Source: Gnetum montanum (taxonomy: Eukaryota > Plantae > Gnetophyta). Taken from it: a stretch of DNA of 64,000 nucleotides. Both the position numbers and the translations under genes were made by a program. Shown in pieces: positions 3,447-42,190 of the stretch (within the stretch, counting starts at the first letter, position 1; every line of letters starts with the position of its first letter). The notes under the pieces were generated by a model. The model was not told the DNA's origin. It searched no databases and saw only the letters and a list, made by a program, of their open reading frames with translations. Location: assembly GCA_015680685.1 (NCBI GenBank), contig MNCI01001077.1:762268-826267 (forward strand), read 5' to 3'.

Positions 3447-6400
3447 GAACTATGGGTTGCACCTTACAAACTTTGATTCACAAATTTCTCCTATTTTCCT
3501 CATTAGTGCAGGGAGGTTCTTCTGCTAGGTGAGATGTTTTGTGTTGCAACCTAGTTTTCACCATTTCTACAATGAGGCATACCCCCCTTAGCATATTGCC
3601 TCTATTAATGCAAGGTCCCTCTCCAACCCTATCTCTCATTGTTATTAAAAGACATTCCCCGATAGCTTTCAGGGGGTCTTTGGATTGGGTGGTGCAGAAA
3701 ACTTGAAAAATCCATGGCTTAGATATCTCAGTGCGATCTTGCTACACCTAGGCGCTATTCTCATGGACCATCAAGAATTCCACAAACCATCATAGGCAAG
3801 CTATGAAGAAGGAAAAGTGCATATTAAAATAGGCTTCAAGCTTCTTACGAAGCTTAACTATTTCATTCCGCAAGCCTTCAGAAAGGTACTTTATCTAGTT
3901 GTAGTGGATTCCTCCTTCCATAGCATCCCTCATGATCCAAGCTTACTCTACTCCAAGAATTTTCCTTTGGAAGAGCAGCTTGGGGAAGGCACGAGCCTGG
4001 AAGATAGGGTAAACCTTTTGGGTCACTCCTAGCCTAACCTTATGCATATAAATTCCCTTTCGGTCCTTGCTCATCCCTAGCCATTCCTCTATGTCCCTCT
4101 AGTGGTTAACATCCTTGTTGTTCTTATCTCCTATCAGTAGACCATCAAAGGGAACACCAAATTGATCTACAAAACATTTTTCATTAATCTCAAATACCAC
4201 CTACACATTTTCAATCCATGTGTGGAAGCAATTAGCCTTTTTGGAAAAGGAATCAACTAGGGAGAGCATTTCTATAGCTTGGACACTTGGATTTACTGCT
4301 AGGAATAAATCCATGAGCCTAGCCTCCTAAACATTATTAACAAGGGTGGCTAGGGCCCCATTGCATAGCCAAAGTTATGTCTCATCCACCTCCTTGTACT
4401 TCAAGAAGAGGTTAGTTTCATCATGCCTAGAGGTAATTACTGTAACCTCTTGGGATTTTCTTGCTACTGCAACAACTAACGACATAATTAACAAAAGAAA
4501 AATCAATCACTTGAACACATGAAAGAAAAATGCATAATTTAACACATCAGGTATAAATGGCATAGGAAATGATGGAATTTCCACTAGAACATCTTCTACG
4601 GTAGGAGCCCGGTGGGATGCCCATTCGTTATCCAACCAACCAAGTTCTTCACACTTCACATAGAACTTGAAGTACTTTGTTGGGTAGGTTTTGAAATTAG
4701 TCCCAAATTGTTCTATGACACCGACACACACGTTCTCAATAGAAGAGAACTCTTGCAAGGTTGTTTGGGTCAACGCCAATGTCCCCTCATTACCATGAAG
4801 ACCATCCTTATCAATCACAAACCTGGTAACATGCAAAGTACGATAAGCATTTTTTGACTAATGCAAGACAAACAATACAACATGCTTGAAACATCTTCAC
4901 AGGACTCACCTGCCGGCATAATACATGGTTCTAGGTGGATTCTGAAAACAGGTGTCCATGTGATGGGCAACGAACAATGTGTTGTATTGATGATAGCATT
5001 TGAATTAGGGCATGTCCCAAATCCAACACAAGCATTGCAAGCCTCTTGGGTGCCATTTTAAGCCTTCTACCACTTCTCTCTCAATTGACCCATTAGCCAT
5101 GAACTTCAAAATGCCCTGGTTCACCCCAAGTAATAACATTTCAATAAGTACAATAGTTGTTTCAGTCGATAAGTGTGACCACACTATCACACTGAAGTGG
5201 TGAAAGAGGAACTCTAGGAATTCCTATGCACCTTTTCAAAACCAGATAGCTTGATGACCTACCCATGCATGGGGAGGGGGGACGTTGCCCACGGGTTCAC
5301 TCAAGTAGCATAAGACTCGCACTAGCTCAAGAACGATTTGGATGGGCTTTAACATGACCTTGTGCAACACAACAAAAAAGTGTTAATACATTGTTCAAGT
5401 GATGATTACTGAGTAGTGTAGCATAACCCTTAGTTTACAAATTTTCCATTACGCATAAAATAGTAAGTCCCCAGCATGGTAAAATAGAACCACACATCAC
5501 ATGCAGCATAGTAGGGTGTTACATGTAGCATAGCGCAGCAGGTACACCCTACACAGTGTAACGGGTACATCCCACATAGCATATCGTAGTAAGGACTCCT
5601 TACATGACATACCATAGCAGGCACACCCAATAAAACGTAGTGCAATAGGTACACCCTGCACAACATAGTGGGTATGCCCTGCATAGTAGAGCATAGCAGG
5701 CACACCCAGTACAGTGTAGCATAGCAGTTACACTGTGCAAAGGATTGATGATTGCATTATGCATAGCATAGCAAGACAACCACACCCCATGTAGCGTAAC
5801 AATGTGACAAGTGCGATAGGTACAATAATATAGCAAGCATGACAACATAGTAGAGATAACACTATAAACAGTGTAGCAAAGTAGTGGTGTTAACAACATA
5901 GCAGCGTAACATGCCTACTAGCGTAACAGTGTAGCAAGCCTACCAATATAGCAACATAATAGTGTAATGGCATAGCATAGCGACCACCAAAAACATAATA
6001 ATTTGACAGTCATGCTAACAAAAACAAAAATACATACGGCCTTGCCATTGCCCCAGCCTTGCCCCACTACATGAAATGTAGCAAAATGAAATGCAAGCAA
6101 AAAGAAAGCTCCCCCCTACACATGCTACACTATGCTGGACATACATTACACTACCTAGAAACTTTGCAAGCAAAAACACCCTCTATGGGTCCTATGCTAT
6201 GTTGAATGTGCATTACTGACCAAACCCTCGCAATGGAAACAGTTGTAGTGTAATAATAGAAATGATTTTAGTAACCAAGACATAGGAACAAAAATAACAA
6301 TATAGCTTAATATGTTACATAATGAAAATGAGGGTAGCGTAGCGACTTAATAGGAAGATGGGGCCTCCTGCTAGTCCTCAATGTGCACCTTAGGAAGGTG

Positions 6401-18293: not shown

Positions 18294-18298
18294 CCCTT

Positions 18299-20431
18299 TG
18301 TACCGTCTAAAATCGTCGGTGTCAGGCTGGAATGTTACGAGCACCGAAAGATTCATAGACAAGCACAGCAGACCCTACCTCCACTTGAGGGTAAGCTAGA
18401 AATGGACAAAGTCAGACTGCCTTGGATGGTCCGCACGTGGATCAAACAAGGACTTCCCCAATGTTTGCCGCTACAACACGTTCGGTTATACATAAACTGC
18501 AACTAAATGTGAACTAATACGAAACCTACAGAAAATGTAAACGTGCGTAAACAGAGAAAACGATGTAAACTATAACAAAAGTTTGTGAAAGGTATCAAAT
18601 GTATTAAAAAAGAGTGTGTACAAAGCACCGGTCTGTACGTAGTTTTGGATCTACACAAGGTAGACGTATAGCCTCGGTTGATAAGGATGGGTGATGACAA
18701 CTACTTGGAATTTCGGTAGGCATAGCGTGAATGCTATATGCTTAGTGTGTAGGATGTATGCACAGCATGTGAGATCTATGCTTCTATGCTCTATGTGTAA
18801 AAATGACCAACTTTTTGACCCCCCCCCCCAAACCTCGATTTAGTTAAAAATTAAGGTTTTTATATGATCTTAGAGCATGGAATTCGGATCTGGAATGGGA
18901 TAATTGGCTATGGGAGGTAAAATTTATGAATCTGGTAATAGGTGGGGCATTGACCAGTGCAAAAGAATAAAATTTTACAAGTGTACAGTGTGAAAACTGT
19001 CCAGTTCACACGTTGGGCGTGCAGATCCTCAGCGTGTGAACTTTCATGCCCATAAAAAATGAATGAATGGTAGTTGTACAACAAATTTCATGGTTCTAGC
19101 CTGTAGATATGAGCTCTGGCATCCTTTTTCTAGCTTCAACGTGTCATTCTAAGCTCTAGGGTGTACTGGAATGTCCATAGAGCTTCCAACATGTGAGTTT
19201 GAATGTTCGGCGTGTTTCTATACCCTCATACGCTAGGCGTATATGCTCCATACGCTAGATAGCAGGTAGTCAAGAGGGAAATATTTTGACCTATATTTTG
19301 ATGTCCGAAGCTAGTTTTGATCATGGATATGGATGCTTGATGTCCTAAGGATTTTTTCTATCAAATTTGGGCTCATTTAACCTTGATTTGGTAGGGTTTT
19401 GGTAGGACTGAAGTTGAGCATGCGGGCCACACGTTGGGTGTATAGGCCAGCATGTGAGCATGAAAATTGCAATTTAGGAATCATATTTGGTACGTTGGGG
19501 TGTGTACATTGATCCCTGAGTCCTTTTGGTTCTCTAGGTCATCCAAGAGTTGATTTTGACTTCATTTCGATGGATTTTTGGGCTCATCTCCAAGGTGCAT
19601 GCTAGCTGTATGCTGGACATATACACTGGGTGTATAGGCCAGCATGTGAGGCCAAAAAGAATACTTTTGATGTCCAAAATAGATGTTTTTGAAGCCTTTG
19701 ATGATGTATACTAGATGCTCATGTCCTGAGGATCAACCCCATGCCAAAAACTTGCCTGAAAGTGCCTGTTTGACCTTGTCCTTGGTGCCAAATGTTAGGC
19801 GTACACGCTAGGCGTGCAGGATGTACATGCTCAGAGTGTGAACTTTCAAGTGCATGATTTCAAGACCAAAAATTGATTTTCTTAATCCCATGATGATGCC
19901 TAATAATTTTCCTATCTTTGAGAGTTGATGCCTTCTGAGAATATTTCTCTGAAATGCCTATTTTGGGTCACCTTTAAAGTCATACGCTGGGAGTACACGC
20001 TAGGTGTGTGAGCCAGTGTGTAGGTAGGAAATGACCCATTTGGTGTTCAAAATTTAATTTTTAGGAGCCTGAGACCTACTTGGGACCTTCGGTAAGGTCA
20101 TGGGGAGTCTATACCTTTGATTATGGCCTATTTTTATGAGTTTTTAAGGCTCAAAAGTTGCTGCACGATGGGCCATACGCTGGGCATGTATAGGCCAGCG
20201 TACATGATGCATACTTAGTGAAAACCAAGTATTTTGAGCTTAAAATTTGCTAGGTTTGATGCCAGATGTCACTGTAGTCTTCTTTAGGTCCTAGGAAACC
20301 ATTTCTTGCTTATTTTGACCCCATTTGAAGCTATCTGTGAGGTCCTCAAGCTTTAGTCATGCTGGGGAGCATCATGACTTAGCTCAATTCTTGTCGAAGA
20401 AGTGTTAAGCTTAGAATTTTGTGGTGTTTCA
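18299..20431 (-). repeat. 3' LTR of element C
   Basis: Aligns end to end with 37325-39431; TATA-like TATAAAAA (minus) near 18857-18864. Confidence 0.95.
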
Positions 20432-20444
20432 TTGGTCCCTCTTT
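20432..20444 (-). promoter_or_regulatory. Polypurine tract of C
   Basis: Minus strand AAAGAGGGACCAA adjacent to the LTR TG. Confidence 0.85.
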
Positions 20445-21619
20445 GTTGGCACTTGGAGGAATCGACCCAAGAAGTGTCAAAAGGGAATTACAAAACACCA
20501 TAAGTAACTTGATAGGAATAATATCCTTTGGCACTTTGCCAGATGTCATCGCACCGTGTTCAATAGTACATGGGATTGGGGAAATAAAGTTTGTAGCTAG
20601 ATAGGGAAATGCAAATTGTGGGGATTGGAAACTGATCAAGAGATTTTGCATGGTGAAGGAGATGCTCTGGTGTGTATACAGGTCATGTTGATCCTTGTTA
20701 ATAGCCATTATCTAGTAGACTTGGAACCAAGACATGATGTGTACGTCCTTTGGCGAAACAAGACTCTTGTTTAGTGTTTAAGAGGACTTGTTGGCACAAC
20801 CAAAGCCATGCGATGATGTGTTGAATTCTTTGGAGGAACAAGGCCTCTATTTAGTATTAAAGGGAACCTACTCGAGAAGAACCAAAGCCATGCAATGAGA
20901 TGTTACTTGAGCATTTGAGACATGAGTACTTGCTTCCAAAACAACTACCTTCCTGCCTAGGGCTTGTATGGGAAGTGCCAAGGGTCTTGTGTTTCTTTGT
21001 GGCTTTTTTGCTCTTTTCTCTTTACTCTTTTATTCTTTTGTTGTTTTTTCTTTTTCTTTTTCTTTATTTTCTGTTTCTTTTTGTTTCTTTTTATTTATTT
21101 TTTATATTTTTGTTTTTTTGTTTTTTTTTTTGTAAAGATCTTTGTTTTGATCTTGTACTCATTCCCAAGTGCCATGTTGTTTGTTGCAACTTCTTAAAAG
21201 TGTTGTAGTGTGCAATGGTGTGCTCAATGTTTTGGGATGCACTAGGTGTGTCTGGGGTGTAACTAGGTAGAGTATGTTGAGGAATAGATGGGAAATGTAA
21301 CAAGAAATGTACTAGTGAATGGCTTGATTAACCTTATTACGTGTGTTAGGAACAATGTGGTACCTTGCTACTGTGATGAAGTGCATTCTCGTACGAACAC
21401 CTCTAAGTATCATCTTGAAAACACAACTCCAAGAAGACAAGAAAACCAAGAGTGAGTGAGTAAGCTTAAACTTGAACAACAACTGATGAAACAAAGGTAC
21501 CGGATGAGATTTCAGGCACTGAATATGAATGGAAGTAATGTTGATAGGATCAACTAATGATGAGTGAGGTAGCAGCTCTGATGAATTTTGAATGCAGCTA
21601 TAGATTGGGAGGCTAGAGA

Positions 21620-21970
21620 TGAAGCTGCCAATTTATTGTCATAGCAGACTGTCGTGGGTTAGTTTTTTGTCATAACCCATTGGACGTTGCCAGTTTAGCA
21701 TTGTAGCGGATGGTACATTGCTAGTTAATATTCTTGGTAGACTGTGGAGAGGCAAACCAGTTTATAGTCTTAGCAGACTCTGGTGAACAAAACTGTGACA
21801 GTTTAATGTCGTACCAGATAGGTGCTAGTTTATTATCATTGCGGATGAACTATGGTGTCAATTTATCGTCATGATGCCTGGACGAGTGGTGGTGCTAGTT
21901 TTAGGTCATGATTCCAGGACCTTGGATTAGATGTGTTAGTTGTGGTGCCAGTTTATTGTCATAACGCTAG
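21620..21970 (-). repeat. AAACT(A/G)GCA array after the integrase stop (C)
   Basis: Plus strand shows repeated tgc(c/t)agttt at ~35 bp spacing. Confidence 0.75.
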
Positions 21971-21995
21971 GACAAGTGCATACCTGAGTTTATGC

Positions 21996-24900
21996 TCAAA
22001 CATAGAACGGTTTCAAGTACAAGTGGTTGGTCGGGTGTGCAAGCTTGTTCACTTCCATGCTAGCTAGCTTAAACGCTCCATTGTCATACGCTTTGGTGAC
22101 CAAGTAAGGCCCTTCCCAGTTGGCTGAGAATTTTTCCAGGTTTTCCCGAACTGCTTTGAGTACAAGGTCACCTTCCTTGATCAGGCACTTATGAATATTG
22201 TGTCGATGGCATCGTCATTGTTTCTTCTGGTACCATTCAATCTGATCGAGCACATGTGTGTGTTCCTCCTCCACCGAGTCTAAGTCAATAATGCGTAAGT
22301 CATTGTTTTGACCCTCATTGAGGAGTCTGGAAAGTGTGATCCTTAAAGATGGTACCTGCAACTCCAAAGGTAAAATAGCTTCTGAACCATAAATAAGACT
22401 ATATGGTGTTTTACCTGTGGAAGTCCGATGCGTAGTATGATAAGCGCATAATGCGTAAACTAGCTGCTCATGCCACCATCGTTTGCTCTGTGTAAGCATC
22501 CTTTTAAGCACTGTGATGATGATCTTATTTGTAGCTTTGGCTTGTCCATTACTCTGAGGGTAGTAAGGGGATGAAAATGAATGTTTGATCCCTAGGCTTT
22601 CATAGAAATTTCTAGTTTCTGCACTACTAAACTGTGGCCCATTATCAGTGATGATGGTCATAGGAATGCCAAAACGGGTCACAATGTTTTCTAGAATGAA
22701 GTTGCATATGTGTTTGGATGTGATCTTTCTAAGAGGAATAGCTTCTACCCATTTTGTGAAATACTCTATCATGGTTATGATAAAGCTATTTCCTATAGAA
22801 GATGGGGGAGTTATTGGTCCGATAATGTCTAACCCCCACTTCTGGAAAGGCCAGGTGATTTGCACAGTATGCAACTCATTCAGTGGAACATGTATAAAAT
22901 TGCTATGTTTTTGGTAGATGTTACACGTTTTGACCTTGGAGAAACAATCGTACCCCATGTGTGGCCAATAATAGCCCAAATGTCTTATTTTTGTTTCCAT
23001 TTCTTTGGGCACTATGTGCCCTCTGCATAGTCCTTCATGTACTTGCTCCACGATGGTTTGGCCATCAATGCTACTAATGCACATCAAGAGGATACCTTCG
23101 TAGGATCTACGACATAACATGTTACCTACTAATGCATACTGTCAAGAACATTTTTGTACTGCATCCTTTTGTGCATTCGTTAGATGTTACGGTGTTTCAC
23201 CGTGTAGAAGGTACTCTTTTATGTTATCATTACATTCTACTGCATGTGTTTTACTAACAGATGTAATCGGTAATTCATCAGGAGTATCAGTTATGGGTTT
23301 AGCACAACTAATTATAGAACTAGGCAACATGTGGAACATGTTTGGCAATATGTTTAGAGCTAACGTGGCAAGTGCATCTGCAATGGTGTTATCATTTTTG
23401 GATACATGTTTCACCTCCATGTTTTCGAATCGCCTCAGCAAGTGCTTAGTCAAATCATAGTATGGTTGTAAGTGTTGCACTTTGCACACGTAAACATCTA
23501 TGACTTGATTTAGAACTAACTGTGAGTCACCTCTGACTATGAGTCAGGTGATGTCTGAAGCTAGTGCTACCATGATACCTCTAAGGAGACCTTCGTACTT
23601 TGCTACATTGTTGGTACAGTGAAAGTCGAAATGATAAGCAAAGGGTCAGATCTCCCCAGAGGGATAGGTGATGACGACGGCAGCACTTTCCCATCGAGAT
23701 GTGGATGCTCCATCAAAGTTCAAAATGGCATCATAGTCATCAAGCACTATGTCTATTGCACTCACATTTTCATTAGGGAACTCTGGCTCTATCATTGCTT
23801 GATCATGCGTTGGTGATGCAATCATTTGATTTGCTATAGCTTGACACTTAACTGATGACTGTGCTGTGTAGTGTAGGTCAAACTTAGCTATCATGGCTTT
23901 CTAGCAAGCTATCTTACTTGATTCATAAATTTTTCCTACGATAGCTCTGAGCACATTATCCTTACAGATTATATTGACTTGGTTGGGGAAGAGGTAATGT
24001 CACCATTTCTTTAAGGAAAGGATAAGGGCTAAACATGACCTCTCCACCTCATTGTACTTTTTCTCATAGGCTACTAATTCATGGCTTAGATAATAAATAG
24101 GGACTTCAATTCCGTCATCTCATTTCTAGTAAAGCATTGATGCGATGGATGAATCTAAAGTGACCAGGTAGATATAGAATGGTTTGTTGTTCTGAGGTGG
24201 ATAGACCATTGATAGTTGAAAAAGTGTTGTTTTAATGTTATCAAATTCTTCCTAGCACTGTGAATTCCATTCAAAATGGACATTCTTGCATAGCAAGTGG
24301 TTCATAGGTTTCAACTTGTTCGTCAATTTTTCTATGAAACACCTGATGAACTATAATCTACCTTGTAGACCTCGGAGTTCAGTAACGTTGCTTGGGCGTT
24401 TCAAGTTGGTGATAGCCTTAACCTTGTCCAGATCTACTTGTATTCCTATTTCTGATACTACAAAGCCTAGCATCTTGCTAGTTTTTACCCCAAAGACACA
24501 ATTTTTTGGGTTGAGCCTAAGTTCATATTTTAGACAACGTTTTAAAACCAAATCTAAGTCTTGTATGTGCTGCTCTAGTGTTTTTGACTTAACTACGATG
24601 TCATCCACATAATCATTGAGCGAATGAAGTAAATAATCACTAAAAATGAATGTCATTGCTCTCTGATATGTGGCACTGGCATTCTTTAAGCCGAATGGCA
24701 TCATTGTATAGCAAAAATTACCTCACGGTGTCATGAAGGTCATCGTGAGTTGATGTTCTGAGTTGATTTGTGCCTAGTTATATCCTGAAAAGCCATTTAT
24801 AAAAGACAATAGAGTGTGCCCCATAGTTGAGTCAACAAGTTAATCAATGCTTGGTAGTGGGAAGTCATCCCTTATGGTTGCGATGTTGAGATCCCAGAAG

Positions 24901-25475
24901 TCTATGCATAAGTGAATGCTTCCGTTCTTCTTGGGGACTATAACCATGTTAGACACCCAATCAGGATAGTCAGTAGACTGAATGAAACCAACTTGATAAA
25001 GCCTAGTGATCTCATTTCAAACTGCCAGTGATACCTCAGGTTTGACCTTGCATGCTTTCTTTTTCACTGGTCTTAACTTGGGATCAAGTATAATGTTATG
25101 TTGAACAATGCGAGGATATAGTCCAGGCATGTCATTGTAAGACCAAGCGAATGCTTTCATGTTATCTTGAAGCACATGTTCTATGTCCTTAGCAAGTTGA
25201 GGTTGTAATAGTGTGCTCAATTTTAATACCTTAATGTCATCATCAGGCATAGTTATGGGGGTTTCCGTTAAAGGGTCTTTAGTGATGCTATCAGCTTCTA
25301 TGTCTAGAGATTTTGTCATACCTTCATAGCTGTCTAATGTTTGTTACATTGAGGCTACAAATATGTCACCTTTTGATGGACCTAAGTCGATAGAATTTAT
25401 GTTGATTTCTCTTGTGATCTTTCTGTATGTTCCATCGATGGTCAATGGTGTAAATAGATGCTTCCAATCTATCAT
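21996..25475 (-). pseudogene. pol: pol of element C: RT - RH - aRH - INT, degenerate
   Basis: MPFGLKNASATYQR, YVDDIVVKS, LNPKNCVFG; FDGAS, CTNNVAKYEGL, GDSQLV; HEGLCRGH, WGLDIIGP, TDNGPQF, QSNGQAKA, WEGPY; ATG at 25475 in frame with ORF 25017-25319. Confidence 0.95.
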
Positions 25476-25574
25476 GCTTGCTCCTGCCAATAAATAGGGA
25501 GGAAAATGAGCTAGGGGGTTGTTATGCTTTCCAGGAAATGTAAATCATGTGTACGTTTAACCGTGACTAAGGTA

Positions 25575-25770
25575 TGTAGTGGTAGTTTATTGTCGTACCT
25601 GGATGCATGGTAGTTTAGGGCCATACCAGGCCTTGCCTATCAATTTATAGTCATAACGGGCTGATCATGATAGTTTAAGGCCTTACTGGGTCATCCGGTA
25701 GTTTAGGGCCATTTTGGGCCATCACGGCAGTTTAAGACCTTACCGGGCCATCATGGTAGTTTAATTGTAA
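25575..25770 (-). repeat. GGCCCTAAACTACC-type array upstream of pol (C)
   Basis: About seven copies of ggtagttta(a/g)ggcc on the plus strand. Confidence 0.75.
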
Positions 25771-27155
25771 CTTACAATTCATGGTTAGAGTACATAGGTA
25801 TGTTTAGTGTACCTCATGGGGTCACATATACGTATATATGTATGTTGTTGGTTGTTTAGAATTCTAAGTACCAAGGGGTCATTAAAGGGGGTGTGAATAA
25901 TTGGTACATGTATGGTACATATGTACAGGGTTTTTTCTTATATTTTTTATGTTTTATGTTTCTTTTTGTTCATTTATGTTTATCAAAATAAGAATGGTAC
26001 TAGAGGCTAGGACATCATAGACCATAGGGACAGCATATGGGGTCTTTATTGTTATTTTTATATTTTATTTTTAAAGGGTCTTCACACCCTACAAAAGTGG
26101 GTCAACATGTACATGAATTTAGAACATGGATGCTGAGTGTTGGTCAAGATTTGTAAACATAGGACAAATCCCTAAATAGTAGGGATAGATCCTACAAAGG
26201 TGGGTCAACGCGTACATGAATTTGAAAAATGATAGTGTGGGTATAGATCAACGTTTATGGACAAAGGGGCAATGTCCTAGATAATTGGAAATGACTCCTA
26301 CTAAATAGGAACAGCATGCCCTAAACAAGAATCAATGTGCTAGATTGTAGGAAGGGTCTATGTGATCCTTACTTTGGCTAATTCTAACGTAATTTTGACT
26401 AGGATAAGAAGGTAAAAATAATAAATGTAAAATAGTTATGCATGAAAAATTAGTGGTTTACACTAAGTAAAACTGTAAATTCTTTGGGACATATAAAAGG
26501 CAAACTATAAAACTATGTAGAACTAAACCTTTCATCCTTATTCCAGCTTAAACCAGGCATTGATAGCGTAAAACCATCAAAATTGCATCATAGAAATATC
26601 AAAACTACAACATAAAATAAAGGGAGATAGAGGGCAGTGTGAACCCAAGGACTGTAGGTCAGCGTAAACCTAAGGACTAGATCCAAAGAGCAACGTACAC
26701 CCAGAATATTGAACTGAAAGAGCTAGCGTAAACCCAAAACCCCAGCATCAAGCCAAGGAGTAGAGGCCAAGACTTCAGCGTGAATCCTAGGTCAGGGTCA
26801 GCATGCATCAAAAGCTCCAACATGAATAGGTCCATGGCAGTGTAAACCACCATTTCCATAGCATTGGGCCATCTATTTTCTAGATCTATGACAATATAGA
26901 TCAGATCCAGAGCATGCGGCACCAGATCTACGATCTACAAGCCCTGATCTGCAATATTTTAGACCAGATCTACAGTGTGCGTGGGTGGATCTACATTGAT
27001 CTGGGTGTCAACATTTAGATCTGCTTGGAACCCTCAGATTTCGGCTACAACATGCAAGATTCGTCGATAACCAGAGTCGCCAACATTCGGGCAAGATGGG
27101 CAAGGGAAAACAAGTAAAGGGCAACGAGAAGAAGGAGGGATCCCTAACCTTCGCT

Positions 27156-30100
27156 ATGGAGAGTGATGAAACACTTCGAAACCTTTTCCAACCTATGATC
27201 CCTTCATGGCCTGGATCCCTGCACCAGTTAGCATCTGATCCGTATATCTAGATCTATTTTCTTTGCTGTTTTTATCAATTATTGTCCAGTTTTCTGCTAT
27301 TAGCGTATATGTTTTTCCTGGTAAATTTAGTCAACGTATGGGATCTTTGGCCAAGGTAGAGGTTGTGAAGCCAGTGTGCAGGCCATGATCCCAGTGTGTA
27401 AACTGTAAAAATGTTAAGTTCATATAGCGTATATGTACTTTTTTTGGTAAATTTTTGCTTAAGTTTTGGTGTCAGCGTGAAAGGTTTGGCTGGTATGCTC
27501 AGCGTGAACCTAACATGCCTAGCGTATAGAGGGCTATACGCCCAGCATGTGGTCTTCACATGCCCAGTGTGTGAGAAGGTCACATGCTCAAAGTATAGCC
27601 AAAAACCCTAAAAAAATTCTAAGTGTGAGAAGGTCACACGCTCAGCGTGTGGACCAAAAACCCAAAAATTTTCCAAGTGTTGCCACAGTGTAAACCTTGA
27701 ATTTTTTGAAATTTTTCATATATTTCCTAGGTGTTAAACTAATGTCCAAAACTGAAATTTTCTAAGTGTTATGTGTGTAATGAGAATGAACCCTTTGCTG
27801 AGTGTTGAATATGAATTGTAAGTGTTAAATAATGTAAACTAAAATGTCGTATGTATCCACTGGGGTATGCAAATAGAATGTTCTTGTTAACAAATGTTGG
27901 TAGTTTAAGGCCATATCGAGCCATTTTTTATGTGTATGATGTACTTACTTTGATCTTTGACTTCATGCAGGGGTCTTAAACCTTTTTTGTTGGTCTTGGA
28001 GCTTGTTGGAGTGTTAGCGTGGTTTGGGGCCATTGATCCAGATGTACCTGCACCTGATATGATGAGTGGTCGAGACGGGTGGTGGTTTAGACCAGGTGCT
28101 AATGAATTCCTTACCTTCATCTTACAAGGGTTCAGTGTGGTTATATGGTCTCATTTAAGTGAGTAACTCACCCGAAGTGTACTTGAGACCATACTGCCAG
28201 GATCAGCTAGTGGCATTTTAGCCTTTGTGACTGATATAGATGAGGGATTTTTTAATGTTGGAGATGGTCCCGTTGAAGGGCCTAGGTCCACTCGTCCATT
28301 GACACGTGTGTGGAACATATCCACATGTAGCCATTACAACGTTAATAGCACTTTGTTCCTTGTTTCCCATGCACACACCTTGTTCAAAAATCCTCCTGGA
28401 ACAGTTTACAGGGCGGCAAGATAAGGGTGTTCAATATATATTTATTTTTTTCGTAGTGCTATATATTTTCTCATGTTTGAACCTTATGTTTTTGTAGACC
28501 TCAGCTCAATGAAGAGGGAGTATATCAAAGTGATGATGAACTTGCACTTGCTCGTACAGCCTTGGAGGCTTTCATGGCAGGTCCCACTTTACGGGGTGCT
28601 GTGTTGGCTCAAACCAAGGGGGTGATCATCCATTACCACAAGCAATACTCAAAGGCCTTTGCACATTGTGAGGCTCAAGGATGGCTACATGCATATTGGT
28701 CTCAAAATGTGCTAGTTTTTCCACGCGATGTTGATCTAGCTCCAAGTTTATCTAATCCATCGGCCAACAATAAGTGATGATGTTTTTATGCCTTTCATTT
28801 GTTTTATTACCTCATCGATTGTTGTGAGATTAATTTCCTATTTTCTTGTATACACAGTGGATGTTACTCCTAGTGGAGTTACAATCGCCACAGGCCGTAC
28901 CGAGGGTACTTTGGCTATGAAGTTTGGAGAAATCAAAGGTGCACAACAATGGTTGAATGATGAGGCATCGCCACATGTCATTGGTTTCTTGCGTGATGTT
29001 GGACTTATGGATTTGTTTACCACTCTAAACCCTAACATCCCTGTGACCGAGATGGTTGCTATTGTTGATTCATTTAATGCAACTATTACTTATTATAGCA
29101 CTCATACTCACGGGATATAAGTAGTTTTCCATCTGATGATAGCATTCTTTTCAGACCTCTTTGGTGTGCCGGTAGATGGGACAAGAGTAACATTTGATAG
29201 GGCTCAGGAAGAAAGTCATGTTGTTTGAGACCTGGAGGAATGGTTGGGTGTTATGAAGGGCTCTAAAGGATTCCCTATGTAGGAAAGATCCAAAGTGGTG
29301 CAAGTGAATGAATTGTACCCTTTCTTCAGAGCACGGGTTTTTCCCAAGTCTCTATCACGAGTTAAGACTCTTGGCCTAGAGCCTGTACGTATCATGCACA
29401 CGATTCTAGAGACTGGGATGCGCTACAACTGGGCACAGTTCTTGCTTTCAAGTTTCCACAGGGAGATAGTGCGATTATGTACAAAAATAAAGGCAAAATC
29501 CTATTTCAATTTCGCATTTTTTGTTTGTTATCTATGCTGACTAGCTGAATTTCTAGTTTTTCATGTAGATAACGAGTACATGTTGAGGGATCGTGGCCAG
29601 TTGTCTTGCCCATGGATATGCCACTTGTTTGAAATTACGAGGTCTTAGGATGTTCCTGAAGGTGTAGATGAATCAACTTCCATTATGACAGCGGACACAC
29701 TTGGTTATTCCATCTATACGCATGACAGCATAGGGTTGGAGCCAAGTAGTGTACCCTACACTGCTAGGAGAGTTGATCGGGTTATCAAGGAGGCAATCGG
29801 GAAGGGTAAGTCTAAGATTGAGAGACCTAAGCGCCCTAATGAAAGTGCTCCAGCAGCTGAACCACCAATGCTAAAGCGTATCAGGTTTAAGCTTTCGGAA
29901 TGTTGTAAGCACATTTGAGTCATTTTTTTTTATTTTGTTTTGTTATTATTTATATTTCACTAGCGTTATACTATGTGTGTTATCAGAACCAACTCCCGAA
30001 GTGAGGGAAAAGCTAGCTCCGATTGTAGAAGAGGAAGAAGAAATCACCACCAATCAAGGTGAGGAGGAAGCGCAAGTAGAGGAGCATATGGAGGATCTCG

Positions 30101-31538
30101 TAGGAGATCAAGATGAAGAAGATGCCATGATGGGAGAATTTTTCGAAGGAAATGTAGATGACCAAGAGGTGTTCGGTATGTTTTTCTATTCTTTTCTATT
30201 AGGCTTGCTTTGTTCTTATGAATTTTTGTTTAGGAGTTTGATTTTTTTTCTCATTTTTTGTTGTTGCAAGATCCTAATGTTGAAGCAAGGGCAACCTCTA
30301 GTGTTCAAAGTAGGGTACCGATGATGACAATACCTACAGAAGAGTCAACCCATGTTGAGGAAGAGTCTACGGATGAGCCCATCAGTTGGATCAAAATGCC
30401 AAGTAAGAAAGACTTCATTATGGGCATTGTCAACAAGGTGATTCATCGCATCCAAATGGCTCATCCTGAACTAGGTATGTACATTTTAGCATGTTGATTT
30501 CATGTTCTACATCTATTTCTATTGTCCATGTTTAATATATATTACTCTTGTATTGATAGGTGATCAGCTAAGGTGGAAACCGTCTGAAGCAACCCACATT
30601 GATGCTTTTCCTCAACTCCCTTCAGAGATTGAGCAAGTACCAAGAAAGATCTACGATGAGGTGGTAGGATGTGTTGTACATAATGCCAAATCTCTTTGGT
30701 CTTGCAAATGCTCCATAGAATAGTTGTGGTTGAGAGTTCAGGCGGCCGAAAAGGAAATTGCAAAACTAGCGGTGGAAAGAAATGACTATAAGTCACGTTA
30801 TGACTTCACGACTACTAGATTGTCAAGAGATGGTACATGGCGAACTTCCAAAGTTACCTACACAAGATATTGGAATCTATTGAATCGTCAGGTAACTATG
30901 ACTCAGGAGTTAGGTGAGCGAAAAGCAGAAATTGACTTGCTCAATATCAAGTGTTAAGATTGGAAAGCTTTCGTTTTTAAAGTATGAAAATGGGATCAAG
31001 ATTAGAAGAACCACAAGCATCAATATAATTCGTTGTTAAAAGATGCATCTGTAGGACAGCATCGGATGGAAATTTTCATAGAGGGATTAGGCCTACGATC
31101 CTCTCTTGATACGTTTGTTAAACATACTGTTGTGGAGATGGAATCTCCTAAGAGATTGATCACAATAGCTTCATGGGAGGTTTCCATAGGTGAATTTCCT
31201 CTTAAGTGTCCTATGTGGACTACTGTGTACAATGGTAAGGTCATACCCGATGTTGACTTAGGCCTTGATGAAATGGATTGGTCTAGTATGCCAGAAGAAG
31301 AGATCCTACGTTGACTAGAGTTTGGCTTAAGAGCTTCCTCTTTCGTGAGTGTTCAATCTTGTAACATTTTTTTGTTCTTTTCTTCGAAATGTTATCCTTT
31401 GACTTGGTGACTGATTTTTTCCTATTATTGTTACAGGGTCATGGTGGCAATGATGGTGATGAAGGTGGCCCTAGTGGAGTGGGGCAAGATGATGCGAAGG
31501 AGCCTAACGATCAAGCTCATCCTAGATTTGATGCCTAG
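27156..31538 (+). pseudogene. Antisense 8-exon accessory gene of element C (exons 27156-27241, 27971-28420, 28498-28769, 28858-29904, 29987-30175, 30271-30474, 30560-31344, 31437-31538; 3135 nt = 1045 codons): FCP1/NIF-like pseudophosphatase + accessory domain + NLS-like + acidic + coiled coil
   Basis: Phase-compatible junctions, T-rich introns ending in AG, five GT donors and two decayed to AT; total length divisible by 3; in-frame stops mostly TAA/TAG/TGA as expected from CAA/CAG/CGA decay; homologs in B and E. Confidence 0.85.
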
Positions 31539-31969
31539 TTTTGATTTGATGTTTTTTTGTTAAAGTGATTATGTATACGAACTATGTATTGTGTGGAGAC
31601 ATTGTGCTAAGTTGTAATTTGACTTTGATACATTTATATAATTTTTCGGTTGATTTTTCTGTTATTCATTTTTTTTGTTTGAATTTTGAGTTTGTTTGAA
31701 CATTGATAAGCATAGACTTGAAGTGAAAATCTTTTTGTTCTTTTGGTTGTTTAAATGTAAACACGATGCAGTAGTGTAAAATGTGTTTGTTCATTTTGTT
31801 GTGTAAGTGTAATGCATGAAGTAAGGATACAAGTAGGAATGTAATTGTAATTGAAGCATAAGCATGTAAAAGGGGAATGTGAAGGAAAACTGTAACTAAT
31901 AACACAACAATGTAAGCATAAATTCAAATAGTGAACTTGAATTGAGAGAAAACATATATAAGAAAATGC

Positions 31970-32250
31970 TCTAGTTTGAGGCCATTTCTGACCATGTGCA
32001 CATGTGTATCAGTTTAAAGTCATGATAGACTGTAGTCTTGATGTTCTAGTTTAAGGCCATTTTGGGCCCCATGCACTAGTTTAAGGTCATTTTGGGCCAT
32101 GTGTAAACAAGAGAAGTTTCAAGTGATACTGGTGGGTTTCTTGGTAAGCCGACCATTTCTAGCCATGGCTAGTTTTATGTCATTGTGGACATGTGATAGT
32201 TTAACATCATTTCAGATGATGAATGTACTTTAACATCATTTTGGACGATG
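31970..32250 (-). repeat. AAACTAG array just downstream of the gag-PR stop (C)
   Basis: Repeated ctagtttaagg(c/t)catttt on the plus strand. Confidence 0.75.
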
Positions 32251-32287
32251 AATGTGTGTCAACTGTTTAGTAATTTTTTGATTTTTC

Positions 32288-35200
32288 TTAATTTAATGTT
32301 AGGAGTGGAATAGGTATCATTCTATACTCAGCGTCCCCTTCACTGATCACGTTGAATGGTAATTCAGCCCAAGGGACATCTAGTGGAACAGGCTCTATGT
32401 TGGTATCTTCTAGTGTTTCCGTATGTATAGTAGTTTCTATGTTTGCTGTAATTTATATGTTAGGTGGTGTATGTACAGTTTCAGGTTTGGGTGTTTCTAT
32501 GCTAGGTAAAGTTTCTTTTACGTTTGATGGATCACTGTTTACTGATTGCATGTACCTTTGTTTTTCCTTTGTGTTATCCTTTTGTTTTGGTTGTTTGGTA
32601 GTTGGTTTCAGTTTGTCAAGAATGTTGTCATCTTGTTTAAGCTCTTCAAACTTAACCTCCGAGCCTTGGTTTATATCTGTATGTAACGAGATGGTAGATG
32701 TAGCAGCATCCCCATGTATGATGATTTTAGCACCTTCATAAGGCAGGTGAATCTCTTGGTGTATTGGGGAAGAGACTACTTTCACTTGAGTCAGCTAGGA
32801 TCTTCCTAATATTAAATTGAACCCTGGCATCTCATCGATGACAACGAAGTTAGTTGATGTGGGGAATCGATCCATTGCTATAAATTCCAAAGTTATGGTG
32901 CCATTTACTACTAGGTGTGATCCACTAAATGATTTTAAACATGTGGTGGAGGTTGTTCTAATTAGTTCTGTAAGCCCTAATTGTTCAATGATGGGATAAG
33001 GTACTACGTTTGTGGTAACTCCATCATCTACATGCACTCTATGTATTTTGAATTGATTTACTTGTATCGTTATGAACATAGGTGCTATTGTTACTTCTCC
33101 TATTTTCTCATCAATTTTGATGTTGTCAGTGTGGAAGCCTAGTGATTTAGAAGTTGATCCTTGAGGCGAATACATTACCACATGAATAGAAGGTTCATTT
33201 GGAGGTAAGTCTTTGCTTACGGGGATTGATGTCAACATGCGTACTAGGGCTTCGCAATGAGTTTGATAAGTTAACATCAGGTCGTATAGGATTAATGAAG
33301 TATTTTTTTGTTTAAGTGCCTACGTAACCTGTGTTAGGGCTATTAATAAATCTTTACCATTAGGTGTATGCTTGTTAGTGGTTACCTGGTCCATCGGGCC
33401 CAACAGTTTTATCTCATGTGTAGCTGGTTTGACGTTTTCTTCTACAACCATTGATTTGGATGTATCATGTATTCCTAATGATTCTCCCTTATAGCTTGTG
33501 TTCGGTTCATTAGTAGGTGATTTCATGGGTACTGCACTTAATGGAGTAAGTTGTTGATGTTCCTTCTCCAAGCGTTCCCATGTGAGCCTGTTTGCTAGGC
33601 GTTCCCGCGTGCAGCGTGGGGGAACAGTTGATTTCTGAACATTGGGTTGCTTTGGAACCCGTATGACCTATGGAGTAGGATGGAGTTGCGGTTGGATGGT
33701 TGAAGGCGGTTGAGTGTCAGGCTACCTACGCACCCTGACAACATATGGGGTTGGCCTAGTAGACGGTTGAGGTGCAGAGGGTTGGTTATCAGGATGCTTA
33801 GGCACCCTAACAACATACGGGATTGGTCTATTTTGTGTTTGTAGAGTGGAAGATTAATGGTTATCAAGATGTTTGGGTATCCTAACAACATATGGAGTTG
33901 GTCTAGTTGGGGGTTATACCTTCGTAGTTGCAACCGCAGGTGTCACCCGGAGTACAAAGGGAGTGGGTCGAGTAGGTGGTTGTGTGTTTGTGGTAGTAGT
34001 AGTAGGAGGTACATGCACTACGTATGGTTTAGCTTGCGGTGGTATGGTAGAGGTTGCCACTGTAGGAGGTACTTGGATGACATAGGGTCTTTGCGGGGTA
34101 GGCGGGTTATATGGAGGGTATGATGATTGAGATGCAGGTGTTTGTGTAGTAGGAGCAGTACGAACTACAAAGGTTCTCCTAGGTGTTTGTTGTTCATTAT
34201 CTAAATAAATGGTGTTAATCCTAGGTGCTTCTTGTTTTCTATCTAAGTAGATAGTGTTAATTACGTATGGTGCTTCCTTAGTATTTAGTGGGTATTTATA
34301 TACACCCATGGATTGGTTTTGCGGTTCAACTGGGTTGGACTCATCAAAATTTATTTTTCCCCTATCTATCATTCATTGAATGTCTTATTTCAGGGTGAAA
34401 CAAAAATCAGTACCATGTCCATTACACTGATGGTACTCACAAAACCTATCTAGCCTGAAGCTTTTTGGGATAGGAGGCTTGTTAGGTGTATCCAAGCTTG
34501 GATTCTTGACCAATTCACAGAATCGATCATGTTTTTGAATGGCTGTTGGAGACATCTGCTTGTGTTTCATCATTCCAGCCTTCAAAACTTGGTCAAACAA
34601 TTGAGAAGGCTTCATAGGTAGTGGTGTGTATTGAGAGGAATCTTTCCTCTCAAAGTTTCGGGCATGACCTATTGTAGCAGTTTGTGATGTAGACGGTTTG
34701 GGTGCAGTAGTGGGAGCAAATCTAGCATAGTTAGTAGGGCCAATAGGCAGTTTGCCTTATTGTCCCATACTTGTTTGTTGTGTTTTTGCTATTGCTACTA
34801 CAGTTGCCTAAGCCTTTTCTTTATCTTTTTTGCTATGTTGGTTTTTAAAGGCTGAATGGCTGGGGTCATGACTATTTTGTGCAGCTTCTTCAATATTCTT
34901 TATTTGTACAAATTCTTGGATAAGAGTGTGTGCATTAAGATAGTATAATTCAGACTTTACAAAATCATTAATGGCCCCCTTTAGAATAGTGAGGAGATAA
35001 GTCTCCGGGATTGGCTCATGGAGCTCATTGAGGGCAGCACTCCACCGTTGGATAAATTTTTGAACAGGTTCAAGCAGTGCTTGCTTGACCTGTATGAGGC
35101 TATCAAGCGTTGCTTTAGGCTTCAAGTNAGAGTTTTGGGGCAAATCCCAATACCGGTAAAGTGCTCTCCCTATGAGAGACATGGGGAACACTCGCAAGAT

Positions 35201-36583
35201 GGCATGTGGCCATGCCTGAAGCAACACACACTCTAGTCTAAATGTTACAAGATGGGCATTGGGGTCTATTTTCCCATTGTATTTAGTTAACGTGGGTAAG
35301 GAAACACCCTTAGGTAATGTTAGAGGTGGAACTAAAGAGCTGATAGGGTCATCCTGATAGAAATCTACTATCTTAAGCTCTTCATCGGTAGCTATTTTGA
35401 GGCGCTTGACCTCATCAATTAGCTCTTGCATCAATTTTTTGGTTTTAGCCCAGTCTTGGGCACTCGATAAAGGGGTAGGTTGGTCATGTTGTGTAGTGTG
35501 CAAGTTAGATTGTTGTACAGTGGGCAGGAAAGAAGAAAGTTGAGTGGTTAGAAGTTGCATTTGTGGAATACCTATGGTGGGTGCCACTAAGGGCAGCATA
35601 CCATAAGAATTAGGTTATTGTTGTTGTTGTTGTTGCTACTATTGAGGTTGAGGTATGTTCATAGGTGGAATTGTAGGAGGTGGTATATTGCAATGAGGGA
35701 GTTGATGTGCTTGCATGTTAGTCACAACCCACTATCCCATTATGATTTGTGAGGGAACACCCTGAACTTGTTGAGTTGAAGTGGTGAAGGATGTCCCTTG
35801 GTCTTGTATTTGTGGTATATAGTGAGTGGATGTAGAAGTAGGTATCACAGACGGCATCCCGATCACTCAGGATGGGAAGGTCAATCCTACATTAGTTTGA
35901 GGGGGGTGTTGTTGTGGTTGTATTTGTAAGAGAGGGGATAACGTGGTGACTGGAGGAATAGTGTTGATGGGTAAACTGAATTGAGTATCGGTCACGGGAA
36001 AAGTGGGAATAAGAGTGGATGGTTCCTGTTGAGGCACATGTGCTTGAGTGGTTTTAAATGAATGGAGGGACATGGTCTCCCCTGTGAAAGGATGAAACAA
36101 TGGGTTTGTGTAAGTATGTGAACTGAGAGTATGGTACGAATCCTCATGTTCGGATTAAGCTGCAAAGTCATCCTCCTCTTCTGATTGAGGATTTACCATG
36201 GACTAGTCCAGAGACTGACTCCTTACTAGAAGGAGCTGTGAGATGAGCTCAGAGTAGTGCTCTAGAAGATGCTGATGTCACATGAGGAGGGGATGAACTC
36301 ATGTCCTCCCTTATGAATTAGTTCATATCATTTCTTAGCCTCCAATTCAATTTGATCTACTACCAAACTGTCTTGGATCTTTACACATATAAAATTATAC
36401 TATTCCTGTGTTATGACATTAAATGATGGATTCTTCCCTTGTAGTCTGAGATCAGTGAGGTCCCCCCCAAGGCTTGACCTCACCGTGGGCCCCAATGGGT
36501 GAAGTGGTGATGACTGGGTATGATGTGGAGGGACTGATATGTGAAATGGGCATGTTAGAATTGTTCATGTTGGTTGGATCCAT
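32288..36583 (-). pseudogene. gag: gag-protease ORF of element C, ending in TAA
   Basis: KYNGKIDPNAHL (retrotransposon gag), FCEYHQCNGHGTDFC (CHHC knuckle), VHVDDG...FNLILGRS...SPIHQ (protease); ends ...PWAELPF...PLLTLN*. Confidence 0.9.
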
Positions 36584-37302
36584 GTCTGGAATGATCTATG
36601 TGTCAAGGTAAGTATGAGATAATGTTAAGTAAAAAATGATAAAAATTTGGCTAAGTATGAAATTATGAACAATGTACTCAGCATATAACCCTGTATGCTC
36701 AGCGTGTGAGGGTTATACATAGCATGTGAACACTAGTCACAGTGTACAGACCACTCTCACAGCATACAGGCACTGTTGTTAGTGTATAGGAACTTGTCAC
36801 AGTGTGTGAACTAGGTTCACAGTGTATAGATAGAAAAATTCAGCGTACAGACAGAGTGGTCAGCATGCTGAAAATGGTGGCAGCGTGTAGCTAGGATCTA
36901 CAACATGTAAGAAAACTAGATAGCGTGTAGACAGGGTCTACAGTGTGCAAAGTAAGTGGTTAGCATATACCAAGGGTGCAGTATAGCGTGCAACCTTATA
37001 GGTAAGAAAAACTAAGTGTTTTAAGATAAAAATGAAAGAATAAGGCAACGTATATCCCAAAAAAATGAAAATTTTGCAAAGGAAAAGGCTAGGTCACAGT
37101 GTGTACCTGGTACAGCGTGCAGATCTGGCTGAAGAGGGTGTAGATCTAGATGAGGAAAACTTAGATCTAGAGCTGATGAAGGAAGATCTGATGGAACTGA
37201 GAGTAGATCAGGAACTATGAGAAGTAGATCTACAAGGTGGTGTAGCAAATCTAAAGAGATCGGGCTTGGATCAAAGTAGATCTAAGAAATGATGAAGAAG
37301 GG

Positions 37303-37319
37303 CCCTCCTTCTAGAGCCA
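37303..37319 (-). promoter_or_regulatory. Primer-binding site of C, tRNA-Asn(GUU) type
   Basis: Minus TGGCTCTAGAAGGAGGG, one mismatch to the complement of the plant tRNA-Asn 3' end (CCCTCCTTCTAGCG-CCA, from recall), 5 nt from the LTR. Confidence 0.85.
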
Positions 37320-37324
37320 AAAAC

Positions 37325-37845
37325 TGTAGCATATGAAATCGTCGATGCTGGGCCGGAACGTTACGGGCACCAAAAGATTCATAGAAAAGCATAGCAGACC
37401 CTACCTCCGCTTGAGGGAAAGCTGAAAATGGATGAAGGCAGAGTGCCTTGGATGGTCCACATGCAGATCAAACAAGGACTCCCCCAACATTTGCCACTAC
37501 AACACATTGGGTTATACGTAAACTGCAACTAAATGTGAACTAGTACGAAACGTATAGAAAATGTAAACATGCGTAAATAGAGAAAATGATGTAAACTATA
37601 ATGAAATTTGGCCAAATGTATCAAATGTATTGAAAGAGAGTGTGTACAAAGGACCGGTCTGTATGCAGTTGTGGATCTACACAAGGTAGATGTATAGCCC
37701 TAGTTGATGAGGATGGGTGATGACAACTACTGGGAATTTCTACAGGCACAGCATGAATGCTATACGCTTAGTGTGTAGGATGTATGCCCAGCATGTGAGA
37801 TCTATGCTTCCATGCTCTATGTGTGAAAATTACCAACTTTTCGAC

Positions 37846-37878
<33 letters not shown>

Positions 37879-39431
37879 ACCCCCCCNGCATGGAATTCAG
37901 ATCTGGAATTGGATGATTCGCTATGGAAGGTAAAATTTATAGATCTAGTGACAGGTGGGGCATTGACTAGTGTGAAAGAATAAAATTTTACAAGTGTATA
38001 GTGTGAACACTGTCCAGTTCACATGCTGGACGTGCAAATCCTCAACATGTGAACTTTCATGCCCATAAAAAATGAATGAATGGTAGTTGTACGATAGATT
38101 TCATGGTTCTAGCCTATAGATCTAAGCTTTTGCATCCTGTTTCTAGCTTTATCATGTCATTCTAAGCTTCAGGATGTCTTGGCATGTCCATAGAGCTTCC
38201 AGTGTGTGAGTTTGGGTGTCTGGCATTTTTCTGTACCCTCATACGCTGGGCATATATTCTCCATATGCTAGATAGAAGGTGGTCAAGAGGGAAATATTTT
38301 GACCAATATTTTGATGTCTAAATCTATTTTTGACCATGGATCTAAATTCTTGATGTCTTGAGGATGCTTCCTGTCGAATTTGAACTTATTTGGCCTTAAT
38401 TTGATAGGGTTTTGGGAGGCCTGAAGTTGAGCATGCTAGCCACACGTTGGGGGTATAGACCAGCATGTGAGCATGAAAACTAAACTTTAGGAAACATATT
38501 TGGTATGCTAGGATGTGTACATTTATCCTTGAGTCTTGGTGGTCCTCTAGGTCATCTGGGAGCTTATTTTGACTTCGTTTCGATGGAGTTTTGGGCTCAT
38601 CTCTGAGGTGCATGCTTATTGTATGCTGGGCGTATAGGCCAGCGTGTGAGGCCAAAAATGATACTTTTGATGTTCAAAATGGAAATTTTTGAATCCTATG
38701 ATGATGTATACTAGATACCCATGTCTTGAGGATCAACCCCATGCCAAAACATTTCCTAAAAGTGCCTATTTGACCTTGTCTTTGGTGCCACATGTTGGGC
38801 ATACACGCTAGGCGTGCAGGATGTACATGCTCAGCGTGTGAACTTTCAAGTGCATGATTTCAAGGTCAAAACTTGATTTTCTTAAGCCCATGATGATGCC
38901 TAATAATTTCCCTATCTCTGAGAGTTGATTCCTTGTAACAATCTTTTTCTAAAGTGCCTATTTTGGATCACCTCTGAAATCATACGTTGGGCGTACACGC
39001 TAGGCGTGTGAGCCAGCATGTAGGCAGGAAATGATCCATTTGGTGTCCAAAATTTGATTTTTAGGAGTCTGAGACCTGCCTGGGACCTTAGGGAAGGTCA
39101 TGGTGAGTCTAGACCTTCAATTCTGGCCTATTTTGATGACTTTTTGAAGCCCAAACATTTCTGCACGCTAGTCCATACGTTGGGCATGTATAGGCCAGTG
39201 TATAGGATGCATACTTAGTGAAAACCAAGTATTTTGAGCTCAAAATTTGCTAGGTTTGATGCCAGATGTCACTGTAGTCTTCTATGGGTCCCAAGGAACC
39301 ATTTCTTACTCATTTCAACCTTGTTTGAAGCTGTCTATGAGGTCCTCAAACTTCAGTCATGCTGGGGAGCATCATGACTTAACTCTATTCTTGTCAGAGA
39401 AGTGCTAAGCTCAAAATTTTATGGTGTTTCA
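37325..39431 (-). repeat. 5' LTR of element C
   Basis: Aligns to 18299-20431; poly-C run with N at 37887; followed by the TSD. Confidence 0.95.
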
Positions 39432-39436
39432 CCCTT

Positions 39437-42125: not shown

Positions 42126-42190
42126 GTTGTGAATTATGTGTGACTTAATTGAAATTAATCTTTTTTTTAAAAGATATATCATTAATACTT

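Follow-up and report, generated by a model that had tools for sequence, protein, structure and literature searches.

A stretch of 64,000 nucleotides of Gnetum montanum DNA (contig MNCI01001077.1, positions 762,268 to 826,267, forward strand; hereafter the window) contains a complete Ty3/gypsy Tat-type long terminal repeat (LTR) retrotransposon, element A, whose spacer between protease (PR) and reverse transcriptase (RT) holds an opposite-strand gene of about nine exons (27096-31538). Since the second exon encodes a NIF/FCP1-homology HAD domain devoid of its catalytic residues, the question arises what use such a domain could have been to a retrotransposon. In our view, with a probability of roughly 60%, the dead domain was a non-enzymatic binding module of an accessory protein that would act in the nucleus and in favour of the element, whereby we infer the binding and, by analogy, the nuclear action and the benefit to the element. 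The copies of the gene in the window, namely that of element A and two partial ones, B and C (Table 1), are dead fossils.

Exon 2 stems from a NIF/FCP1-homology HAD domain. The peptides quoted for this assignment in an earlier reading made from the letters alone (the sequence-only reading) are present in the window, in frame 27972-28421 (+) of A and 5355-4900 (-) of B, and the two NIF exons are 39% identical over 151 amino acids (tblastn, E=5e-26). Pfam NIF (PF03031) matches A with E=3.5e-4 and 20.7 bits, over residues 36-77 only, and B with E=0.18 and 11.9 bits. Against 1.84 billion proteins, a profile of A and B obtained 79 matches at E<=1e-3 (best 1e-12, profile positions 3-148), of which the five at or below 1e-10 are all two-domain proteins and the best single-domain one has 2.2e-9. 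NIF was found in 25/25 matches scanned with Pfam, and among 20 that were looked up those bearing an organism name belong to plants or red algae and are of the FCP1-homology type. When the 79 host-type matches were themselves made into a profile, which is partly circular because they were collected with A and B, it gave 69 bits for A and 63 bits for B across the whole domain, and nothing else in the window scored. The fold predicted from A and B alone is poor, with a predicted local distance difference test score (pLDDT) of 44; its top Foldseek hits are NIF-family chains at E>=0.22, and a wide structure search places mostly HAD enzymes on top (Z<=4.2). Built on a 56-row host alignment, the fold reaches pLDDT 89, and its matches include CTDNEP1, SCP1 and Tim50 (E ~1e-5 to 1e-6), as is expected from the alignment input. 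The assignment, which the sequence-only reading had made dependent on a profile or structural match to the HAD/NIF fold, is thus backed by significant profile matches.

That reading had extended the captured domain over 27971..28769. Exon 2 bears this out, whereas exon 3 was rejected as a C-terminal continuation of the NIF domain, its similarity to the corresponding portion of the host domain falling short of significance (E 0.14 and 0.21). Word-based searches returned no homologue of exon 2 among 530 candidates from longer proteins and none of the A+B alignment among 188 candidates; no related locus was confirmed among 244 and 85 pattern matches in metagenome and viral contigs, and no genomic copy of a Sphagnum host gene, sought for a comparison of intron positions, among 594 matches.

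The catalytic positions are almost invariant in host-type rows, where motif I carries Asp in 73/73, motif III Lys in 78/78 and motif IV the Asp pair in 76/77 and 71/77. In A and B, motif I reads ExVxV, so that its second position is altered too, and the DxDx(T/V) signature is absent. As had been claimed from the letters alone, the nucleophile Asp has become Glu in both copies (GAG codon in each) and the DD motif is missing (Val-Ser in A, Ala-His in B). Altogether, 0/5 catalytic columns are kept in either copy, compared with 21/29 other conserved columns in A and 19/28 in B; the Ser/Thr position of motif II is Ser in both. The motif I Glu and Val, as well as two His that adjoin motifs II and IV, are common to A and B and occur in no host-type match, and the change is therefore older than the A/B split. 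This comparison of two copies agrees with the earlier claim that the loss is ancestral rather than post-insertion decay, and it supports the view that exon 2 lost its catalytic set before the split and that the domain would be a pseudophosphatase.

The protein encoded by the NIF exon was under purifying selection after the A/B split. Identity between A and B is 0.54/0.65/0.29 at the three codon positions (142 codons, p=4e-10), while neutral-decay simulations to equal protein identity (n=300) gave 0.66 at each position and a third-position minimum of 0.55. Exons 3, 4 and 8 show a codon-position pattern like that of exon 2, and synonymous sites are saturated among the three copies. Third-position identity of the NIF exon is near that of RT, RNase H (RH) and archaeal-type RNase H (aRH) between A and B (0.32-0.36), from which it follows that the antisense gene is as old as the split; codon pattern and pol-like divergence together argue that it was inherited with pol and maintained as a protein after the active site had been lost.

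In all three copies the antisense gene is located between protease and RT, copy B lying antisense to and upstream of an RT-RH-aRH-integrase (INT) block at ~7350-10720 (+). For the intron after exon 2, A and B agree in both position and phase, and so do A and C for the last intron. Exon 5 ends in a basic cluster, and by inspection the exon 8 region looks like a coiled coil. In the predicted protein, the dead HAD domain would be followed by the conserved central domain and then by an acidic stretch and a coiled-coil-like terminus. The central domain (exons 4-5) may resemble a plant mobile domain (PMD) in its spacing, a resemblance confirmed by no match: for exon 4 as PMD or Transposase_28 none was obtained in Pfam, PDB or Atlas, the central exons, whose translations are stop-ridden, gave no PMD or Transposase_28 match in Pfam at E<=1 or 10, and a word-based search with the exon 4 alignment found no homologue among 3924 candidates. 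The gene would be expressed from an antisense promoter of its own, and its introns may survive because they are located opposite to the packaged genomic RNA strand. By analogy with other antisense extra open reading frames (ORFs), the protein would act in the nucleus and favour the element; nuclear regulatory roles have been proposed for such ORFs (PMC7264820, PMC4408406, PMC11963269).

Some expression is seen in RNA of relatives. Reads from three runs (X12, X15 and X16, labelled with the species of the DNA run that matches the window best) are mostly 85-95% alike and thus derive from relatives. The transcript is antisense to gag-pol, as judged from the strand bias of X12, and the joint 27226>31438 is present in 80 reads of X12, 19 of X16 and 7 of X15. 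This joint and those at 27226>31277 and 31344>31438 occur in RNA and are absent from the DNA run X1, so that the first donor (27226) and the last intron are confirmed. The dominant signal is a short antisense RNA in which exon 1 is spliced straight to the last exons and the coding exons in between are left out, which could reflect exon skipping or internally deleted copies. No RNA run was listed as sharing words of the window; ten DNA runs with five organism labels share 8-34% of the words of the window; in X1, the only one aligned, 10,202 contigs align on 7.2 kb and the NIF exon is deeply covered, which suggests many related copies, the figure not being a copy count. A depth peak of X12 at 29879-30119 is a poly-T artefact (loose ends).

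Several observations weigh against our reading. At the level of homology, the Pfam NIF gathering score of 21.8 bits is reached by neither A nor B. The test for selective catalytic loss (Fisher, p 0.005 for A and 0.008 for B) used a catalytic set chosen after the alignment had been inspected and counted the motif II Ser as non-catalytic, though it is part of catalysis (otherwise 1/6 is kept), and the domain comparison involves two copies only, no further family member having been found in the protein and contig searches. The NIF exon has in-frame stops, one in A (codon 65) and three in B, which were read through as X. In the RNA, the listed exon 1 joints bypass the NIF exon, no exon 1-2 or 2-3 joint is found among the 15 joints listed of 96, and X12 read depth is ~0-3 over the NIF exon compared with ~100 over exon 1. 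Finally, exons 3 and 4 cannot be joined confidently in frame, for which reason the NIF domain may belong to a shorter product.

At the end of exon 3, the reading frame meets the same Lys codon and stop in A (28775-28780, +) and B (~4507-4512, -), a site that doubles as a donor-like site with a phase mismatched to the exon 4 acceptor. Either a shorter product with the NIF domain ended here and this end was conserved, or a donor upstream of it has decayed.

What the module could have bound is best approached from its relatives. Among the nearest proteins, motif I is DxN in 66/73 rows and DxD in 6/73, and the named matches of this DxN family, all FCP1-homology proteins, come from Asteraceae, Sphagnum, Selaginella and red algae. 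Among solved structures UBLCP1, rather than SCP1 or FCP1, is closest to this family, with host-family profile scores of 73.7 bits for UBLCP1, at most 48.8 for SCP1, 31.1 for Tim50 and at most 25.1 for FCP1. The sequence-only reading had proposed that the dead domain binds the phosphorylated C-terminal domain (CTD) of RNA polymerase II, as a decoy or recruiter that aids transcription of the element. Being extended from a distant subfamily, this is a weak extrapolation, and it is also opposed by the loss of the SCP1 pocket for the CTD proline, which consists of Phe106, Val118, Leu155, Tyr158 and Arg178 (PMC7281111): by manual mapping through the profile alignment, 0/5 of these residues are kept, with Phe106, Leu155, Tyr158 and Arg178 replaced by Ala/Glu, Ser/Ser, Leu/Thr and Ile/Gly in A/B and Val118 falling within an insertion that the profile lacks. 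The fold does equal that of SCP1 and FCP1, and the two Asp residues are dispensable for substrate binding (PMC7281111); both copies retain the Ser of motif II, and for the motif III Lys A has an Arg, but B has a Gln there, and among the Arabidopsis SSP genes only SSP4, SSP4B and SSP5 are described as having CTD activity (PMC8774115). We thus consider CTD binding unlikely, and a partner of the DxN family or a chromatin factor is more likely. Residues at or next to the old catalytic motifs invite another speculation, namely that the shared Glu (column 16) and the two new His (columns 72 and 143) make up a site for a metal or ligand that supports another kind of chemistry. They are identical in A and B at ~40% overall identity, absent from all host-type rows and all adjoin old active-site motifs, and a degenerate HAD domain may stay active, as human TIMM50 is reported to be at acid pH (PMC13216928). 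Given two sequences with ten shared host-rare positions, three of them need not be special, and such a re-tooling appears improbable to us.

One could also ask whether the domain mattered at all. The exon might be a passenger, i.e., a decayed host fragment or a nested foreign element, with the antisense RNA alone, or nothing, being of relevance, and it is true that plant transposable elements (TEs) very commonly capture gene fragments (PMC13477047), that the present RNA of relatives mostly omits the coding exons and that every copy in the window is broken. For the past, this is largely refuted by a codon-position pattern far beyond neutral decay, by three copies in identical position and orientation in spite of saturated synonymous sites, and by the intron position and phase conserved between A and B, so that we give it very little credence. 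Just as little speaks to us for a domain that merely serves as a folding or spacing scaffold of the neighbouring central domain and has no partner of its own; the retained residues are those of the hydrophobic core and of structure, and exons 2 and 4 diverge equally (nonsynonymous divergence 0.62 and 0.61), but a captured domain of 150 residues kept at ~40% identity in spite of saturated synonymous divergence would more often bind, for which Tim50 provides a precedent (PMC13216928).

As to the origin of the binding module that we favour, it would have been captured from a DxN-type eukaryotic NIF gene. In a quick tree of 79/81 rows (two short rows dropped), A and B form one long-branched clade (Shimodaira-Hasegawa-like approximate likelihood-ratio support 100) without firm placement, and their grouping with 19 land-plant-like rows, only part of which are named, is not rejected (approximately unbiased test, p 0.65). 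The donor may have been a land plant, a giant virus or another eukaryote. A fungal DXNXT group of NIF proteins, which may correspond to the DxN family, has been classed as pseudophosphatase (PMC13216928). The DxN-type proteins themselves match A and B in sequence over the whole domain and keep the residues of motifs I, III and IV; in A and B all of these are lost, and the two copies occupy a long branch of their own and reside inside a retrotransposon. The CTD-like phosphatases of giant viruses (pithovirus, marseillevirus) match the host-alignment fold in structure (template-modelling score 0.80). The CTD phosphatases of the FCP1/SCP type (SCP1, FCP1, plant CPL, SSP4/5) have the HAD/NIF fold in common with A and B, which differ by lacking DxDx(T/V), the catalytic Lys, the Asp pair and the SCP1 pocket and which are farther from them than from the DxN family and UBLCP1. 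In human TIMM50, motif I carries a Glu as well. Tim50/TIMM50 also offers a NIF domain with a degenerate motif and a non-catalytic role (PMC13216928), and it matches in structure at E ~1e-5; it differs by its low profile score (31 bits) and as a mitochondrial host protein, and the losses would be independent.

The closest comparison class for the whole gene are the extra ORFs of Tat elements (Ogre, Retand, gymnosperm TatIII), which include PMD with coiled coil and Transposase_28. What they share with the present gene is that an element with an aRH bears an accessory ORF in antisense orientation, transcribed separately (PMC4408406, PMC7264820, PMC6317226, PMC11963269), and a charged, coiled-coil-like C-terminal part. 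The extra ORFs described are located either 5' of gag or in the interval from pol to the 3' LTR, whereas the present gene lies between protease and RT, and thus neither 5' of gag as in Ogre nor antisense 3' of pol as in Retand; where it sits, Ogre has an intron (PMC4408406). It further differs from them by its approximately eight introns and by starting with a host-derived pseudoenzyme; plant elements are described as generally intronless save Ogre and EVADE (PMC12786077). In orchids, Ogre-related elements have captured an AlkB N6-methyladenosine demethylase, likewise a case of a host enzyme domain that became fixed in the Tat family (PMC9289625), yet the AlkB domain has retained its cofactor residues and is of recent origin, while the NIF domain is catalytically gutted, ancient, antisense and spliced. 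The text of that study, a screen of 121 angiosperm genomes, as distinct from its figures and supplementary chart, does not name NIF (PMC9289625). In the literature searched, which covered the supplements of PMC6317226 in part and possibly not its table of extra-ORF domains, we found no earlier report of a retrotransposon with a NIF domain, and none of a gene with several introns placed antisense between protease and RT. Tat elements with extra ORFs or captured enzyme domains are already known, and the NIF domain, the position and the introns are new in so far as no prior report was found.

A host parallel exists in MAIN/MAIL1-PP7L and MAIL3, where a TE-derived domain and a phosphatase-like domain control TE silencing (PMC7156037). 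One could speculate that an ancient Tat lineage built a regulator of its own out of the pseudophosphatase and a PMD-like part, nested antisense within the gag-pol intron, as a selfish counterpart of this module and a decoy against host silencing, with splicing toggling between the full protein and the short antisense RNA. This would require a PMD in exons 4-5, which no match confirms, and PP7L has a PPP rather than a HAD fold and is encoded by the host; we see only a slim chance for it.

Antisense extra ORFs are common in plant Ty3/gypsy elements, and one study states that similar genes were not found outside elements (PMC7264820). In the present case, the donor family is traceable and a defined catalytic knock-out was followed by long conservation. 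A 150-residue domain of known fold therewith provides a handle on what accessory proteins bind, and the uncharacterised DxN NIF family becomes a possible player in the conflict between host and transposon.

Table 1. Features of the antisense gene, its copies and element A, in positions of the window.
Feature	Position	Strand	Remarks
Exon 1, coding part	27096..27226	+	ATG to phase-2 donor in frame with exon 2
Exon 2, degenerate NIF/FCP1-homology HAD domain	27971..28420	+	stop at 28164-28166; donor decayed in copy A
Motif I Glu, exon 2 of A	27999	+	replaces nucleophile Asp; GAG codon in A and B
Motif II Ser-His, exon 2 of A	28149-28154	+	
Motif III Arg for Lys, exon 2 of A	28293	+	Gln in B
Motif IV Val-Ser for Asp-Asp, exon 2 of A	28362-28367	+	Ala-His in B
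Exon 3, end uncertain	28498..28777	+	26% identity with copy B
Exons 4-5, approximate boundaries	28858..29906	+	conserved central domain, 35-37% identity with B
Exons 6-7, predicted, boundaries inferred	29989..30476	+	acidic, low-complexity; exon 6 38% Asp+Glu
Exon 8	30562..31344	+	charged, helical-looking; 29% identity with copy C; five stops
Last coding exon	31437..31538	+	Gly/acid-rich tail; RNA joints land at 31438
Copy B of antisense gene, exons 2-5	3622..5355	-	NIF exon 5355-4910, three stops
Copy C, last two exons only	59733..60765	+	antisense to, just 3' of protease 61511-62038 (-)
Element A, complete Ty3/gypsy Tat-type LTR retrotransposon	18299..39431	-	21.1 kb; LTR pair, target-site duplication, TG...CA ends
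5' LTR of element A	37325..39431	-	then sequence like a primer-binding site starting TGG
3' LTR of element A	18299..20431	-	polypurine tract precedes
gag region and aspartic protease of element A	32453..35614	-	stops interrupt; protease ORF 32795-33319
pol block of element A	22215..25400	-	Pfam RVT_1, RT_RNaseH_2, RVT_3, rve, Integrase_H2C2
RT of element A	24351-25400	-	
RNase H of element A	23781-24350	-	
Second, archaeal-type RNase H of element A	23187-23780	-	
Integrase of element A	22215-23141	-	
TAGTTTAAGG-like motif	25611-25699, 27901, 32047-32077, 43150-43346, 60944-61040, 21896, 59259	+	
TAGTTTAAGG-like motif	6809, 7035, 11014	-	

Element A is bounded by a 5 bp target-site duplication (18294-18298 and 39432-39436), and its LTRs are 84% identical across 2133 nt (Kimura two-parameter distance 0.166). 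In its coding direction, gag and protease come first, then a 7 kb spacer, and after it RT, RNase H, archaeal-type RNase H and integrase, the gag and protease matches in Pfam being weak (Gag_p24_C E=0.16, Asp_protease_2 E=0.02); the protease shares 48-50% identity with two further protease copies. Possession of an additional RNase H is what defines the Tat clade, and a location of this domain between RH and INT is typical of Ogre and Retand (PMC6317226). Element A shows this arrangement (RT_RNaseH_2, RVT_3, rve), and together with the LTRs, the 5 bp duplication and the GAG-PR-RT-RH-INT order, the extra aRH places it in the Tat clade.

On the gag-pol strand of A and B, just 5' of RT, a pyrimidine-rich tract ending in AG is followed by GAG (25484, -, and 7254, +). 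Owing to this acceptor-like tract, the PR-RT spacer may be an Ogre-like intron, in which the antisense gene would be nested; no donor to pair with the tract was identified. A short repeated motif, TAGTTTAAGG-like, is clustered at either end of the PR-RT spacer as well as 3' of the integrase in several elements, and these clusters are possible binding sites of an element or host protein. The same motif cluster is found downstream (43150-43346) of a fourth protease copy at 44068-44621 (-), beyond which antisense exons are undetectable and other sequence occupies ~39500-43000, 3' of this protease.

The window is crowded with Ty3/gypsy remnants. In place of the 3' end of the antisense gene of copy B, an LTR-like segment followed by the gag start of another element is found at 1-2500 (-), apparently a nested insertion or a deletion in copy B. 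Short direct and inverted repeat families of the GCTATGCTA type occur in three regions (2560-3190, 12880-13515 and 57615-57995) and probably belong to another repeat family. Lastly, Pro/Thr-rich tandem repeats of ~24-25 codons each lie between gag and protease of element A (33595-34372, -).

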